Virus record (IMG/VR): IMGVR_UViG_2874945390_000011
DNA length: 42,488 bases
DNA from: a virus
Lineage: Duplodnaviria; Heunggongvirae; Uroviricota; Caudoviricetes
Direction: 5' to 3' (one strand)
This document shows positions 22,122 to 29,890 of this stretch, in pieces. Position 1 is the stretch's first letter, and every line of letters begins with the position of its first letter. Both the position numbers and the translations under genes were made by a program. The notes below the pieces were generated by a model. It saw only the letters and a list, made by a program, of their open reading frames with translations, searched no databases and had not been told where the DNA came from.

Positions 22122-23439
22122 TCTCGATGTCCTCGTCGGTAATGGATGCCCCGATGCCGGTTACGTCAGAATTTTCTCGCAAATCAGTCATAGCGGCTTT
22201 CAGTGTCATCAGACCATCACCCAGCGCCGTACTGATTGCGTTGGTGGTGTTTAACGCCACCGTTGAGCGATCGACATCAGACATTTGCCAGAGCGGGTTA
22301 AACTCAAACGTGAAATCGTCCGGCAGCGGCTTGCCAAGTTCCGAACGATGCATGATGTCCAGTATCCGCCGCACAGGAAGACGTAAACGCCTCTCCTGCA
22401 ACGAACTGATGCGATCGTAATAGTTGGCAAGGTCTGCATCACCGGTAGAAAATCCTTTCGGGGACTGTCCGAACAACCGCACCAGTGGGATACCAACAGC
22501 GCCACTAATCTGTTCTGCAAACTGCGAAAGGATGTCATCCAGACCACTGAAGCTGTACTGATGGGTTTCAAACTTATCCCGCGAGTCCATGAGCGTCATG
22601 CCTTCATTACTCTGGAACTGTCGAATCAGGTCGATATTCTTCAGCAACGCTTCATACGCAGGACCACCAAGTGCGATAAGCTCGCGTAGCTTCTCCACGC
22701 TGTAGGTACGCAAATGCGCCTTGTAGACCAGCTGCGCCGCGCCGACAGTAGCGCTGTCGAACGCGGTAAGACGATCCCAGATACGCTCTACAACCGACAT
22801 TCCCCATTCGTTCTCGGTCATCTTCTGCTGAAATGGCAACGTGACGCCATCAAAGCGAATCAGGCGACTGTGATGAATGCGCCAGGCAGGAATTCCCGTT
22901 GCTGTGGTCACCACATCGTAAAACTCAGGTTTACCCAGGTCCGGCCCCATATCTTTAATGCGGCGGGTCAGTGCCGGGTCGACCATCCAGCGGTCGAGCG
23001 GGAGAATCCCCTTAAACTTGCCCTTACCGATGGTTTCGGGTCGCAGCGGGGTCATTGGTGCCTGCCCCTCAATCATGATGAAACCCACCGCGCCGCCGTA
23101 GAGGCGCGACCATTTCAGCACGTCATTCAGCGCATCCCAGATTTGCAACTCATCCAGTTGTGATTCGAGAATGCCACGATCTTTTGCATCAATTTCCGAA
23201 GTGATGCGAATGCCTTTGCGGGTCATATCATCCGGGATAGCATCGACTGCTTCGCCGATGATCCAGGATGAACGATAGGACCATTCCACCAGCATGCGGT
23301 TACGACTGGTGAAATTAGCCCGGTAGGTGGATGCTGAGTGCTGGTTAGGTGTCTGCATCCCTACGCGGGCAATAAAATTCTCATAACCATCAGCTGTGGC
23401 CTGCACAGTTCGCCGCAGGGCTTGTTTGTTTCGTGCCAT
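21973..23439 (-). CDS. portal protein
   Basis: 488-aa ORF directly after the terminase large subunit with acidic C-terminal tail; positional and compositional assignment. Confidence 0.7.
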   Translation of the reverse strand: MARNKQALRRTVQATADGYENFIARVGMQTPNQHSASTYRANFTSRNRMLVEWSYRSSWIIGEAVDAIPDDMTRKGIRITSEIDAKDRGILESQLDELQIWDALNDVLKWSRLYGGAVGFIMIEGQAPMTPLRPETIGKGKFKGILPLDRWMVDPALTRRIKDMGPDLGKPEFYDVVTTATGIPAWRIHHSRLIRFDGVTLPFQQKMTENEWGMSVVERIWDRLTAFDSATVGAAQLVYKAHLRTYSVEKLRELIALGGPAYEALLKNIDLIRQFQSNEGMTLMDSRDKFETHQYSFSGLDDILSQFAEQISGAVGIPLVRLFGQSPKGFSTGDADLANYYDRISSLQERRLRLPVRRILDIMHRSELGKPLPDDFTFEFNPLWQMSDVDRSTVALNTTNAISTALGDGLMTLKAAMTDLRENSDVTGIGASITDEDIENAEDEAPPGIGEPDDEPQEPSGGNPVSNQPTQDSEGGRRHRKWSLRWFK

Positions 23440-24943
23440 CAGGCCTGTCTCCCCAACTGTTCCCAGATATCCAGCGATGTATCGATTGGCGCGAAGGCCA
23501 TAATGAATGCATCAGCAACGTTTGGTGACGGTATCTCGCGTTTTGCGAGGTCTTTTTTACTTTCGACCATCACACGTCCGTTACGGTCGAAATCACGATG
23601 AGGTGTTGTCAGTTCCAGTTTCAGCTTTTCAAGCAACGGACAACGAGAATCTATGCTGATCAGCTCATCCACAGGATACTGTTCTCCGTTGTTAATGGCG
23701 TTAAACGTATTTCTGAAACGGTCAGCCACCATGCCTGAGCCTTAAGATTTGCGAAAAAGTCTTTGTTGGGGATGCCGTTGTACTCGTCATCTGGCTCATG
23801 CACACCAGCACCGGCGTTAAACCTCTGGTAATTCACACGTCGCGCGTATGCGTTCTCGCTCTTCCGGTCAGCGTTAATTTCAGAGAATTTAGCACCGGCA
23901 GACGCACCAACACCGATAGAGTCGTAAACAATATCTGCTTCACGCTCCAGCGCCGCCTGATAAGTACGCTGGCAGCTCTTCAGTAATTCATCTTCTTTGG
24001 CCTTCCATTCGTCGGCCCAGAAAACAACGGATCCGTGACGGTAAACGTTAGCGCACTTATCTGTACCACTGTCAGCCACGTCAAAGCCAATACGCTTTCT
24101 TCCACTGGGTTCGAAATTTAACGTTTTGTGCGCATCCACTGCGGCTTCTATCCAAGACAGTTTGATGATTGTCGCATCATCATCAGACTCCGGAACGCCC
24201 TCATACACATGTTTAAAACCATCCGGATCACGGCGTCGCGCCGCGTCGATAACCTTAAGCATGGTGTCAGACAGAAACGGATTTTCGTCATAGTTAATTT
24301 TGCGGATGAGAGTGCCTTCGGGCGGATCAACAACGAAGTTGCGCCAGACGAAATCAGTAACAAGTCCGGGGTTGAATATGAACCAGCATTCCGAACCCTC
24401 TTTACGGATCGTTGGCTCCAGAATTTTCCACTGGTATTCCGTCAGTGCGTGGGCTTCTTCCAGCCACAACACATCGATCCCCTCCAGTGACTTAATTTCT
24501 TCGATGTTGCGCCATAATCCATAAAAAACAAATTCCGAGCCAGTAACCCGGTTAATGATTTTGTTGTTCAGAATACGGAAACGGTGCCGCAGACCAAACC
24601 TGTCTATCTGAATTTTGAGCAGGGTATACACCGACTCTTCGATTTTATTCTGGATCTGACGGGCACAACAAAAACGCAGGGTGTATTTATTCGACAGAAA
24701 TATGGCAATGCCAGCGGCATCCCATGATTTTGACGATGACCGACCACCATAAAGCACTTTGTTACGTGCCCGCATAGTCCAGAAACTACGTAAAGCCGGA
24801 TTCAGCGTCGGTTTGGATGTCAGAGTAGAAGTCATTGAGGTCACGCTCTCCATTGCCATCATCAATACCTGCATCACGGCGAAGACGATCAGCCTCCAGA
24901 GACACCTTATCAGTGGCGGCCTTGCGGTAGGCTGTATCAGCAA
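23439..24943 (-). pseudogene. terminase large subunit, split by a frameshift
   Basis: ORFs 23660..24943 and 23439..23732 overlap in frames offset by 1; the junction AQAWW / VADRFRNTF reads like one continuous terminase of about 495 aa. The listed start is TTG; true start probably internal. Confidence 0.7.
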
Positions 24944-25532
24944 ATATTTTTCCTACCGTCGCAAGCGTGCCAACGATGGACTCAATACGAACTGTATTGC
25001 GCATCATTGCTTTCTCGGCGGCGCTGATATTTTCAATCAGCATCTTCCTTTCCTGGTCCCCATTAGCATCTTCCAGCGACACCAACCACCGACCAATATT
25101 CTCTGCAGCGACAAGGTTGTTAGCACGAAGGCGAAATAATTCGTCCTCGAGCGTCAACGCTTTAGCGTCCTCTATCACCTCATCTTTGAGCAGAAGGCGA
25201 CGGGCATAACCACCGTGTTTTAATGCCTGCTGGTTACCGGGTTGGAATGGGTTAGTCGGGGGATCGGTACGCATTCCGCGTATCGGTTTCGTATCCGGTG
25301 TAGATTCTGTTTTTAGTTGCGTACTTTTTTGTGTAAGGCCAGTAATGGCAGGCTTTCTGCTGGTACGCACTTTCCTTTTTTGCGTACCATTGCCACTGCG
25401 TGCCCAACCAAGCTTTTTGGCCCTCTTCCTGATAGCCCCTTCTGTAACGCCGTATTTCTCGCCTATATCACGGAGGCTAAGGACTCCGGCCCGGTATGCC
25501 GATTAGATGGCCTCCCAGTCCGGTTTTGCCAT
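24786..25532 (-). pseudogene. terminase small subunit with premature stop at codon 10
   Basis: ATG at 25532 gives MAKPDWEAI then TAA (25503..25505); the same frame continues SAYRAGVLSLRDIGEKYGVTEGAIRKRAKK (HTH) into the 24786..25370 ORF with GNxxALKHG motif. No ATG, GTG or TTG between the TAA and the HTH. Confidence 0.6.
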
Positions 25533-25726
25533 GATTATGCTTCCTGTGATTTACTGTTATCGCTGCCTGTCACAATAGGTTGCTTTAATTCTTCCTCATC
25601 ACTCACTCCTGCGACGCTCCGTGGCAGGGCCCCCCACAGGAGTACCTTGTAAATGTAAGGTGTTTAAGCCTAAATTAAGTCGTATCACGGTTAAATAGCA
25701 AAGAAAAATTCACAGAAGGAAAGACA

Positions 25727-26239
25727 TTGATGGAGTGGATAAATGCTTTGATGAACTATTTTGTACTTCATCCATATCGCCTATGGGGGCTTCTTTTTAT
25801 AATAGCGTTCACAAAATCCACTTTACTCATTTCGGCAATATTGCCACCAGCATCAATTATGATGGCCACTGTAATTACAGTCAGCAAGACGACTCTTTCA
25901 CCATGGGAAGCTGGAATCACGGTCATGAGTGGCGCATGGTGCGGTACTATCGTTAATTACCATCTTGGTATAATAATTGGGCATATCCCTCAACTTGCAT
26001 GTATAATATCGAGCCGTTCCAATACAATAGAACGGGTTCGCCTTCAGTTGCAAAATAACTCTGTGTCAATACTTTTCACTTCGCGCTTTATCGCCGTGCT
26101 GCGTTATATTGCTCCTTTGGTGGCAGGAATGTTGCAACTTCATCCAGTGAAAGTGTATACAGTGAGTCTGATTTCAGCTGCTAGCTGGTCAGCACTTTAT
26201 GTTGGTAGTTTTAGCTTCGTGTTGCCTTTTTTTAGCTAA
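25727..26239 (+). CDS. DedA/YqaA-like membrane protein (moron between lysis genes and terminase)
   Basis: 170-aa ORF with four or more predicted transmembrane segments; on the strand opposite to the late genes; AT-rich upstream region. Confidence 0.45.
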
Positions 26240-26809
26240 ACTGCCCATAAAAAGCTCTTGCGAATCCAGCTTCCCCCATTCCTCTGACAACAGAATCTGA
26301 TTTGAAGGATAATGAGTAAAATTACCGCTACCCCCAAGGCATTGGATCCAGATGTACTCCTGAAGCATTCTCAATGCTGTCTGGTCGCTGATGATTCCGT
26401 CCCGGATACCGAGAACGTTTCGTCCAGCAACTGGAGAGAGTTCGACGGTGGCATCATTGCCCATGCCGGAGGCGCTGGAGGTTTCGGCTGAGGATGGCAC
26501 AGGGCATTTTCCTTTGACGAGCACCCGACCACCATTATCAAGCTTGCGCCGAAGAGCATCATTTTCAGCTTTCGCATCAGCTAACTCCTTCGTGTATTTA
26601 GCATCGAGTGCATCAGCATCACGCTGGCGCTGCTGCATGTCAGTAATGGTTGCGTTCGCCAGCTTCAGTTCTCTTGCGTTTTTGTCGCGCTGCTCTTTGT
26701 AGGTAATGGCGTTATCACGGTAATGATTAACAGCCCATGACAGGCGGACGATGATGCAGATAACCAGAGCGGAGATAATCGCGGTGACTCTGCTCATTGC
26801 TGCCCCCAC
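26189..26809 (-). CDS. i-spanin Rz
   Basis: N-terminal 110 aa closely parallel recalled lambda Rz ([17 protein letters not shown]...[11 protein letters not shown]...[19 protein letters not shown]); about 50 codons longer than lambda Rz at the C-terminus. Confidence 0.75.
26371..26577 (-). CDS. o-spanin Rz1 lipoprotein
   Basis: Embedded in the +1 frame of Rz; lipobox-like VVGC then Pro-rich [11 protein letters not shown], as in lambda Rz1. Confidence 0.7.
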
Positions 26810-27291
26810 AAACAGACTTCACGCTCAATCTCACGACGGGTCATCAGCCCTTTCCATTGCTTACCGCCAGCATATGTCCAGCGACGTAGCTGGTCACATG
26901 CGCCTTTGATATCGCCCTGGTTTATTTTGCGAAGAAGCGTCGATGTTCTGAAATTGCCAGCGCCCACGTTGTAAACGAACGAGTAAAGAGCGCCGCGCGT
27001 TGTTTCCGGTATATCGACTTTGATGTACGGGTTAATTTGTCTGGCGACAGTGGCAAGGTCTTTATTCAGGAGAGCTTTGCATTCTGCTTCGGTATACGTT
27101 TTACCAGGCATGATGTCTTTTCCGGTGTGTCCGTGACATACAGTCCATACACCAATGATATCTTTGTATGGTATGTAGCTGACACCTTCCAGACCATCGT
27201 TACCACCTGGGCCAGTGATTAACACAGATGCTATAGCAACAGCCCCGCCACCAATAGCAACTGCAACAGCCTTGCGTAATGATGGCGACAT
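26794..27291 (-). CDS. SAR endolysin (phage 21 R-like lysozyme)
   Basis: 165-aa ORF nearly identical to recalled R21: Gly/Ala-rich N-terminal signal-anchor-release segment followed by a lysozyme catalytic region. Confidence 0.85.
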
Positions 27292-27506
27292 TATTCACCT
27301 CTCGCAGCCTTACGCTTATCTTCTCTTATTTTGAAATACAGATTCGTCAGATAAGTCAGAAGCCCCAGAAGCAGACTTCCCAGCACACCAATCGCAGCCC
27401 ACTGTGATGGACTGACCTGATCCAACCACTGCAAAAACCAGTAGCCGGCACTGCCGGCGGAGGTGCCGTAGGCAATGCCTGTTGATATTTTTTCCATCTG
27501 ATACAT
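27291..27506 (-). CDS. pinholin (phage 21 S-like) with dual start motif
   Basis: 71-aa [30 protein letters not shown]... near-identical to recalled S21; Met1 and Met4 give the 71-aa antiholin and 68-aa holin forms. Confidence 0.85.
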
Positions 27507-28185: not shown

Positions 28186-28260
<75 letters not shown>

Positions 28261-28263
28261 ATA

Positions 28264-28339
<76 letters not shown>

Positions 28340-28341
28340 GC

Positions 28342-28418
28342 TGGCCCACCACCGAGGACTCGAACCTCGCACCGTCAACTTAGAAGGTTGATGCTCTATC
28401 CGGATGAGCTAGTGGTGG
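28342..28418 (-). tRNA. tRNA-Arg (anticodon UCU)
   Basis: CCACCACUAGCUCAUCCGGAUAGAGCAUCAACCUUCUAAGUUGACGGUGCGAGGUUCGAGUCCUCGGUGGUGGGCCA; 7-bp acceptor stem, anticodon stem UCAAC/GUUGA, loop CUUCUAA. Only 1 nt from the next tRNA, so the 5' boundary is uncertain. Confidence 0.65.
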
Positions 28419-28419
28419 T

Positions 28420-28496
28420 TGGTGGCCCTTGCTGGACTTGAACCAGCGACCTGGCGATTATGAGTCGCTCGCTCTGACCAACTGAGCTAAAGGGCC
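28420..28496 (-). tRNA. tRNA with anticodon CAU (Ile2-like, ileX/ileZ type; Met not excluded)
   Basis: GGCCCUUUAGCUCAGUUGGUCAGAGCGAGCGACUCAUAAUCGCCAGGUCGCUGGUUCAAGUCCAGCAAGGGCCACCA; closely resembles recalled E. coli ileX; anticodon loop CUCAUAA. Confidence 0.7.
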
Positions 28497-29488: not shown

Positions 29489-29552
29489 TGAGGTAGCCTG
29501 AGTTTAACGGACACTCCTTCCTGAAATAGAATGGCATCAGAAGGAGCTAATA

Positions 29553-29855
29553 ATGAGCAGAAAAACCCAACGTTACTCTAAAGAGTTCAAAGCCGAAGCT
29601 GTCAGAACGGTTCTTGAAAATCAACTTTCGATCAGTGAAGGCGCTTCCCGATTATCCCTTCCTGAAGGCACTTTAGGACAATGGGTTACCGCCGCCAGAA
29701 AAGGGCTCGGTACTCCTGGTTCCCGCACGGTGGCTGAGCTGGAATCTGAAGTTATGCAACTGCGTAAGGCTTTAAATGAAGCACGACTTGAGCGAGATAT
29801 ATTAAAAAAAGCAACAGCGTATTTTGCACAGGAGTCGCTGAAAAATACGCGTTAG
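29553..29855 (+). CDS. IS600 OrfA (IS3-family transposase N-terminal HTH protein)
   Basis: 100-aa ORF with HTH and leucine-zipper-like C-terminus typical of IS3-family OrfA. Confidence 0.85.
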   Translation: MSRKTQRYSKEFKAEAVRTVLENQLSISEGASRLSLPEGTLGQWVTAARKGLGTPGSRTVAELESEVMQLRKALNEARLERDILKKATAYFAQESLKNTR

Positions 29856-29890
29856 TCGAACAATGGCGACAACAATTCCCTGTTGAAGCG

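Follow-up and report, generated by a model that had tools for sequence, protein, structure and literature searches.

The analysed window is a stretch of 42,488 nucleotides (IMG/VR virus record IMGVR_UViG_2874945390_000011), and all positions given here refer to it. Judged by its sequence, the window is a decaying lambda-like prophage of Shigella with the late genes on the minus strand. An IpaH-type effector gene is found at positions 1057-2820, which points to a Shigella/EIEC prophage. The lysis cassette comprises S, the gene of a P21-type class II holin (27291-27506; PF04971 at 1.5e-35), R, which encodes a phage lysozyme (endolysin; 26794-27291; PF00959 at 9.5e-46), the i-spanin gene Rz (26189-26797; PF03245 at 1e-28) and the o-spanin lipoprotein gene Rz1 (26371-26577; PF06085 at 3.8e-21; lipobox VVGC), all on the minus strand. 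Rz1 is intact and embedded in Rz, which encodes 202 aa and carries a -1 frameshift at its end. The small terminase gene (24786-25533, minus strand) is inactivated by a TAA at codon 10 (25505-25507), where relatives have GAA, and carries an 18-bp deletion at 25391. The large terminase gene (Terminase_3; 23439-24943, minus strand) is split by a 7-bp deletion at 23722.

The gap that separates the lysis genes from the terminase genes holds, on the plus strand at 25727-26239 and convergent to the minus-strand late genes, an ORF for a DedA/VTT-domain inner-membrane protein (PF09335). Translation from the TTG at 25727 yields 170 aa. The alternative ATG at 25730 yields 169 aa and is, according to the alignment, the start used by all homologues; it is the likelier start of the gene. 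The sequence-only reading let its finding begin at 25533; this position belongs to the start codon of the small terminase and lies outside the DedA feature. The product of the 170-aa ORF matched PF09335 (Pfam VTT_dom/DedA) with 52.4 bits over profile positions 3-121 of 123, the Pfam cut-off being 33.9 bits, and the RefSeq entry identical to it, WP_011069285.1, is named 'DedA family protein'. The earlier assignment of the ORF as the gene of a DedA-like multi-pass membrane protein is borne out by the Pfam score above the cut-off and by the RefSeq name. The family search that had been proposed as a check returned, besides this match, homologues in several Enterobacterales. The top NCBIfam matches were the DedA and UptA models, though far under their cut-offs: the protein scored 30.7 bits with PRK10847 (E. 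coli DedA; equivalog cut-off 236) and 19.5 and 16.0 bits with the UptA models (cut-offs 250 and 300). With scores so far under the equivalog cut-offs, no characterised activity can be transferred to the protein.

The structure of the DedA ORF protein was modelled with AlphaFold. An earlier run with 17 sequences only had reached a pLDDT of 56. The AF2 model built from 57 sequences is all-helical, with a pLDDT of 76 and a pTM of 0.71. It shows two hairpins (helices 16-30/42-53 and 112-119/125-135), which are broken at conserved tips, and further long helices at residues 59-85 and 140-169. Two re-entrant helical hairpins, together with transmembrane helices, make up the core of DedA proteins (PMC10127716), and the predicted helix pattern fits this core. 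A fold search of BFVD with the better model found no phage protein and returned weak matches to giant-virus proteins annotated as 'SNARE associated Golgi protein' (TM 0.41). Neither the single-sequence search nor the profile search of the PDB detected a relative of the protein.

The classic moron after Rz is bor of lambda. It is separated from Rz by 31 bp and read from the opposite strand, and the position of the DedA ORF matches it. The comparison of positions confirmed that the DedA ORF reads convergent to Rz in the slot held by bor in lambda. The DedA gene shares with lambda bor and borD of DLP12 a location right behind Rz/Rz1 and ahead of the packaging genes, with a reading direction against that of the late operon, and these genes are all of the lysogenic-conversion cargo type. 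The products themselves are different: Bor is an outer-membrane lipoprotein which confers serum resistance, whereas the DedA protein of the window is a polytopic inner-membrane protein of unrelated sequence.

The limits of the inserted segment were derived from blastn searches and GC content. The cassette at 25655-26250 (plus strand) contains the DedA-family gene, about 72 bp upstream and about 10-11 bp downstream. It is 82% identical over 595 bp (25655-26249) to a copy in a Citrobacter youngae-type prophage and 77% identical to a chromosomal copy of C. meridianamericanus. Outside 25655-26250 the window has nothing in common with either of these loci. The GC content is 0.406 in the cassette and 0.49-0.51 in its flanks, and no flanking direct repeats that would suggest transposition were found at the cassette. 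Of 5426 complete E. coli genomes, only 6 contain the DedA segment, but 4993 have matches to the neighbouring Rz/R DNA; this distribution agrees with the earlier claim that the DedA ORF is an insert. In phage records no close copy of the DedA segment was detected, while the Rz/R DNA matches 292 of these records. A tblastn search of 50,697 phage records returned only distant DedA matches of 24-30% identity, mostly on host-like contigs.

The protein closest to the DedA protein of the window (78% identity) is encoded in the Citrobacter youngae prophage. This prophage is lambdoid but unrelated to the window, with a GH19 endolysin, different holins and a lambda-type Nu1/GpA terminase. As in the window, its DedA copy lies on the opposite strand directly after a spanin-like gene pair, a pair assigned from sequence features only. 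On its left side, the Citrobacter cassette is flanked by remains of lysis genes: the 3' part of an R-type lysozyme gene, and Rz/Rz1 in degenerate form. The cassette has thus recombined into lysis regions more than once. The chromosomal orthologue of C. meridianamericanus shows 74% protein identity. More distant chromosomal members (36-57% identity) occur in C. amalonaticus, Enterobacter, Hafnia, Morganella, the isolate bta3-1 and Arsenophonus, where the carriers include endosymbionts with genomes under 1 Mb. A lack of homologues had been named as an outcome that would speak against the membrane ORF; with homologues in a prophage and in chromosomes the opposite was observed. The DedA gene is an extra gene between phage modules, is missing from close relatives, deviates in GC content and is read from the strand opposite the late genes. 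By these marks, all taken from sequence comparison, it is a horizontally acquired moron in a lambdoid prophage. Our literature search found no description of a DedA protein as a lambdoid moron and nothing relevant on WP_011069285.1.

Rz of the window starts with the ATG at 26797 (a mechanical GTG start lies at 26809) and encodes 202 aa, versus 155-156 aa normally found in relatives. The QC motif corresponds to residues 152-153 and is followed by 49 further residues, and the Rz and DedA ORFs overlap by 51 bp (26189-26239). The sequence-only reading was therefore right that Rz runs about 50 codons past the usual QC end and that its tail overlaps the DedA ORF. It had further suggested that the original stop of Rz was replaced by the insert; on this explanation, the long Rz would be a product of the insertion junction. 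Two observations favor it. The Rz tail reaches into the insert, sharing 51 bp with the 3' end of the DedA gene, and the end of Rz in the DedA-bearing lineage differs slightly from that of insert-free relatives. The last residues before the stop codon are QCR in lambda, QCLK in JLK-2012, QCLR in DLP12-like prophages and QCLGG in the DedA-bearing relatives, and the difference between the latter and the QCLR or QCLK ends is a 6-nt patch, CGATGA>GGGGGG.

Alignments to the DedA-bearing relatives located the cause of the elongation in a homopolymer at 26331-26335, C5 on the plus strand and G5 on the Rz strand, with one base missing. The relatives read GGG GGG TAG and the window GGG GGT AGC, by which the TAG stop is lost. 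The loss of one base from the G6 run allows translation to continue for 46 codons out of frame. The resulting tail (residues 157-202 plus stop) occupies 26189-26329 on the minus strand, its last 51 bp being antisense to the 3' end of the DedA gene. Twelve of the 14 loci that carry the DedA insert have C6; C5 is found in the source contig of the window and in one other assembly (L020). The twelve loci, which include E. coli FDAARGOS_943 (98.6% identity to the window over 25300-27000) and S. flexneri SFBU1023, encode an Rz of 156 aa, whose TAG and the DedA ORF are 88 bp apart. Rz thus terminates normally in loci that carry the identical insert, and the sole difference at the stop is one homopolymer base.

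The homology to insert-free DLP12-like prophages also argues against a stop removed by insertion. It runs past the Rz stop to 26284, which places the junction downstream of Rz. The insert junction at 26250-26283 truncates a small ORF and not Rz. This small ORF follows Rz in DLP12-like prophages and is full-length (50 aa) in an insert-free one; its remnant in the window is located at 26236-26337 on the minus strand (phrog_11822, a weak match at 0.0036). Consequently, the claim that the insert replaced the Rz stop did not withstand the comparison with the twelve insert-bearing loci, the one-base homopolymer loss and the junction downstream of Rz, and we consider it extremely improbable.

The missing base might instead be a homopolymer error of the assembly, in which case the true Rz of the strain would be a normal protein of 156 aa. 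In favor of this are the 6-base homopolymer at the site, the single assembly (CP026836.1) in which the exact 202-aa Rz is recorded, and the other C5 assembly (L020), where gene coordinates are shifted by 1-4 bases against those of its relatives. In order to place the long C-terminus among related proteins the ends of Rz relatives were compared. In the best 120 of about 8000 relatives Rz ends with QC plus 1-3 residues, save for one cluster. This cluster, P0218, whose sequence lies on a 4.53-Mb contig, consists of 5 near-identical members which have the tail of the window together with the ancestral residues C18 and R150. Among the same best 120 relatives, no homologues of the read-through tail were found outside P0218. 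Entries of 194 aa among the relatives are N-terminally extended gene calls. The alignment of Rz C-termini had been suggested as a check on the earlier reading, and a long C-terminus shared by related Rz proteins had been named as evidence against it; among the best 120 of about 8000 relatives the long tail is limited to this one 5-member cluster.

Compared with its relatives, the Rz of the window shows the changes C18R in the membrane anchor, a change at residue 60 and R150W. The occurrence of the same tail on the C18/R150 background of P0218 fits an inherited frameshift. It suggests that a real frameshift was inherited in a small clade and that more non-synonymous changes followed in the window. 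Moreover, the other lesions of the window are a substitution and the 7- and 18-bp deletions, which are not homopolymer errors. An assembly error is therefore unlikely, though clearly less so than removal of the stop by the insertion. Phase variation at the G run was also considered; it was rejected since the run has only 6 bases and the prophage carries other inactivating lesions.

As in the Rz/Rz1 genes of lambda, P21 and DLP12 (RzpD/RzoD), Rz1 of the window is embedded in the +1 frame, and residues 1-154 of Rz are 92-94% identical to an E. coli 'lysis protein'. Unlike these spanins, the Rz of the window lacks its stop, has 46 unrelated residues right after the C-terminal Cys and carries the C18R and R150W exchanges. 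With an arginine in the membrane anchor and 46 out-of-frame residues it belongs to the i-spanins by descent, but is probably inactive.

We favor the reading that two independent events adjoin at this locus, the capture of a DedA moron and a pseudogenizing frameshift in Rz, and give it a probability of roughly 0.8. According to this reading, a low-GC DedA cassette of about 600 bp would have been captured from a chromosomal lineage of the Enterobacterales. In the recipient, a lambdoid prophage, it would have come to lie downstream of the lysis genes and ahead of those for the terminase, running against the late operon. Rz would have lost one G of the G6 run abutting its TAG, which would have produced the out-of-frame tail antisense to the 3' end of the DedA gene. 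The overlap of Rz and DedA would be an accident of this frameshift and neither an evolved arrangement nor the junction of the insert. The DedA gene itself would have been kept intact by purifying selection amid the decay of the surrounding Shigella prophage.

The comparison with other Shigella and E. coli loci bears on this last step. Relative to the FDAARGOS_943 copy, the window has the terminase lesions, the Rz frameshift and three non-synonymous Rz changes, and the DedA ORF shows one synonymous change only. In the ten loci listed, IS elements cut Rz, R or TerL variously and the 170-aa protein is identical, although the look-up finds exact matches only and is thus biased towards intact DedA copies. 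In the assembly collection, 5113 blocks contain exactly this DedA protein. The intact state of DedA across Shigella may partly reflect recent common ancestry.

The DedA ORF might accordingly be a functionless passenger which has not decayed yet. The Shigella copies differ by 0-3 nt only, which would have left little time for decay. Neither a clear promoter nor a clear terminator was found, and both acidic residues needed in the E. coli homologue YqjA are absent (see below). Several observations point in the other direction. The dN/dS of the Shigella versus the Citrobacter prophage DedA copies is 0.24, a value that mostly reflects the history before or between captures. The flanking phage genes were repeatedly hit by IS elements, deletions and nonsense mutations, and the 513-bp DedA ORF was spared. 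The 70 nt upstream of the ORF are conserved, and the residues that replace the two acidic ones are conserved throughout the subfamily, including genome-reduced Arsenophonus endosymbionts. On this evidence a functionless passenger is unlikely, and the selective retention of an intact DedA gene is the preferred reading.

Upstream of the DedA ORF, a Shine-Dalgarno-like AAGGA (25716-25720) precedes the ATG at 25730 by 9 nt, and AGGAG occupies its place in the Citrobacter copy. The conservation of about 70 nt upstream extends over the prophage copy and the chromosomal copies of Citrobacter and Enterobacter. Conservation within this region outlines a footprint at 25661-25697 on the plus strand, which consists of a direct repeat with an 11-bp period, TGTTTAAGCCTAAATTA (25661-25677), a spacing of 14 nt and the hexamer TAAATA (25692-25697). 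Hypothetically, this footprint is a candidate response-regulator site followed by a -10-like hexamer. A promoter and terminator scan of the surroundings of the DedA ORF found no consensus sigma-70 promoter upstream and no intrinsic terminator downstream; expression of the ORF in the lysogen is thus putative. A relaxed promoter scan upstream of the ORF yielded only sites with 7-8 of 12 matches, which were not conserved in the Citrobacter copy. There was no match in Rfam. The sequence-only reading had regarded its membrane ORF as refutable by a lack of homologues and expression signals: the homologues are present, and clear promoter and terminator signals were not found.

The upstream repeat was also compared with known regulator boxes. 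For PhoP, the box (T/G)GTTTA-N5-(T/G)GTTTA with at most 2 mismatches was taken as the criterion (PMC5775216). The site at 25661-25677 agrees with it at 9 of 12 positions, its 3 mismatches exceeding this limit, and the window contains 146 sites that match the box equally well, versus 92 expected. With sites of this kind so common, the repeat on its own is not significant as a PhoP box and amounts to no more than a lead. The same applies to a PmrA box. In Enterobacter, the region between mgtE and the orthologous dedA contains a PhoP box that deviates from the consensus at 0-1 positions (0.05-0.07 expected per locus), and no other box of this quality occurs anywhere in that locus. Furthermore, the neighbour of chromosomal DedA members is mgtE in four genera and corA in Morganella. 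The genomic context therefore provides a lead that may connect the DedA subfamily with Mg2+ and PhoP.

DedA proteins play a central part in the recycling of undecaprenyl phosphate and in polymyxin resistance, and those of COG0586 (YqjA, YghB, DedA and UptA) are proposed to be PMF-driven undecaprenyl-phosphate flippases. The DedA protein of the window resembles YqjA, YghB and DedA and the B. subtilis UptA in its VTT/DedA domain and in the arginines of the second hairpin. It is 22-23% identical to YqjA and DedA of E. coli K-12 and about 50 aa shorter than these, without the C-terminal helix and an 11-aa N-terminal stretch. YqjA and YghB require the residues E39, D51, R130 and R136 (PMC6849406; bioRxiv 10.64898/2026.09.20.752871). 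In COG0586 DedA proteins the acidic residues have been read as proton-binding and the arginines as binding the phosphate of UndP (PMC10127716).

In an alignment with YqjA and DedA of K-12, R120 and R126 of the window protein correspond to R130 and R136 of YqjA. Arginine occupies these two positions in 133 and 132 of 137 relatives, respectively. The positions of the essential E39 and D51 of YqjA are taken by K30 and A42, so that both acidic residues of hairpin 1 are absent. The K/A pair was found in 8 of the 9 subfamily representatives checked, i.e., the members alignable over hairpin 1, and this signature is kept throughout the subfamily. At the E39 position 9 of the 137 relatives have K and 127 have E, and K is confined to the subfamily of the window protein. 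The D51 position is non-acidic in the PAP2-fusion branch as well.

The subfamily is small. A profile search of 1.84 billion protein representatives yielded only 12 clusters at E<=1e-30, counted at 50% identity. The next-best matches (E 1e-19 to 1e-15) were mostly VTT-PAP2(-LssY_C) fusions of 450-700 aa. Like the window protein, the DedA-PAP2(-LssY_C) fusions have both arginines and, in place of the Asp of D51, one of the residues S, A, T or V. Unlike it, they have Glu at the E39 position, a length of 450-700 aa and a lipid-phosphate phosphatase domain. To our knowledge, no such fusion is known from phages. The PAP2 fusions have been placed in COG0586, the branch of the proposed undecaprenyl-phosphate flippases (PMC10127716). 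YqjA variants D51A and R136A fail at pH 8.5 (bioRxiv 10.64898/2026.09.20.752871). Since D51A abolishes the function of YqjA, the natural K/A variant may work differently or bind another ligand. The DedA gene is a new member of two known kinds, the morons and the DedA proteins, and its residue signature is unusual.

From the retained arginines we infer that the DedA protein binds an anionic lipid head group, either undecaprenyl phosphate or a phospholipid. Most likely it would be expressed in the lysogen and would flip or scramble an anionic lipid, for instance undecaprenyl phosphate, probably without proton coupling. Such a protein would alter the envelope homeostasis of the host and not the growth of the phage.

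A service to the phage itself was considered as an alternative. The DedA protein might modulate the holin and spanin or the timing of lysis, or exclude superinfecting phages via an altered inner membrane. Two lambdoid phages that are not related to each other have the cassette immediately behind their spanin genes, which would agree with such a role. The intergenic slot is, however, a general site of morons, as exemplified by bor, and transcription of the late operon would oppose that of the DedA gene on the other strand. In addition, most members of the family are chromosomal and have no phage context, and the gene persists in prophages that have lost the capacity for lysis or packaging. A role in phage growth is consequently quite improbable, even more so than a functionless passenger, and we prefer a function in the host envelope.

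A more far-reaching proposal combines the residue signature with the genomic context. The cassette could encode the mobile form of an Enterobacterales-only DedA subfamily which, with K in place of E, A in place of D and its retained arginines, would be a proton-uncoupled scramblase or flippase of lipid phosphates tied to Mg2+ homeostasis and PhoP signalling. Captured by lambdoid phages and retained in Shigella, it could act as an envelope-remodeling fitness factor under low-Mg2+ or antimicrobial-peptide conditions. This proposal is speculative, and we regard it as rather doubtful in its full extent.

The long Rz has little general importance, as it is one more lesion in an already dead prophage. 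It serves as a warning that, where ORFs overlap beside homopolymers, a frameshift artefact may be the cause. The DedA gene is of modest interest, as the gene that survives in an IS-riddled Shigella prophage and that has moved between unrelated phages as a discrete cassette of 600 bp. As a natural variant of the E39K/D51A type, the DedA protein of the window could be of use in telling apart the contributions of lipid binding and proton coupling within the DedA family.

The chromosomal orthologues of the DedA-like gene were examined for their neighbourhoods in five genera, represented by the loci L010 and L036 (Enterobacter), L029 (Arsenophonus), L033 (Hafnia), L035 (bta3-1) and L034 (Morganella). 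In all five a Mg2+ channel gene lies zero to two genes from the orthologue. This neighbour is mgtE in four of the five genera and corA in Morganella, while the remaining neighbours vary from genus to genus. The mgtE-dedA intergenic region of the Enterobacter locus L036 contains a canonical PhoP box (TGTTTAAGAACGGTTTA, 3898-3914). A second VTT-domain (DedA) gene of 190 aa was observed in Hafnia (L033, 5035-5607) and in bta3-1 (L035, 4979-5554), in both cases on the opposite strand and two genes from the subfamily member.

The right-hand junction of the DedA cassette in the window, where 34 bp of sequence are unassigned, carries one arm (26262-26275) of a 14-nt inverted repeat. The other arm (25905-25918) lies inside the DedA ORF, and 13 of the 14 positions are complementary. 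This repeat may be due to chance or may be a trace left when recombination brought the cassette to this site. In the Citrobacter prophage L006, which carries the same cassette, the region to its left (7291-7972) holds remnants of a second lysis cassette, namely a fused Rz/Rz1-like ORF and the 3' part of a gene for an R-type lysozyme, which shares 81% identity with window positions 26804-26931. A functional GH19/holin/spanin set stands beside them.

In the window prophage the packaging genes bear three inactivating lesions, all of them specific to the window. The gene for the large terminase has lost 7 bp (at 23722), and that for the small terminase has both an 18-bp deletion (25391) and a TAA at codon 10 (25505-25507). 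Two IS copies of 1264 bp, each encoding an IS3-family transposase, are located at 29489-30752 (plus strand) and 40396-41659 (minus strand). They are 98.9% identical, inverted relative to each other and flank approximately 10 kb of early genes. The copy at 29489-30752 is missing from the related prophage of E. coli FDAARGOS_943.

Four tRNA genes are clustered on the minus strand at 28186-28496, with the holin gene on one side and the gene for a Q-like antiterminator on the other. Three of them are Gly-TCC, Thr-TGT and Arg-TCT; the fourth has a CAT anticodon, and the annotation of the E. coli relative gives it as Ile. A gene for epoxyqueuosine reductase (QueH; 32350-33036, minus strand) is situated amid early and nin-region prophage genes.

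Besides the DedA-like gene, the prophage has a second cargo gene, which encodes an IpaH-type type III effector with LRR_TTSS and NEL E3 ligase domains (1057-2820, plus strand) and adjoins the tail-fibre genes. Since the prophage carries this effector gene, its host is assigned to Shigella or EIEC.
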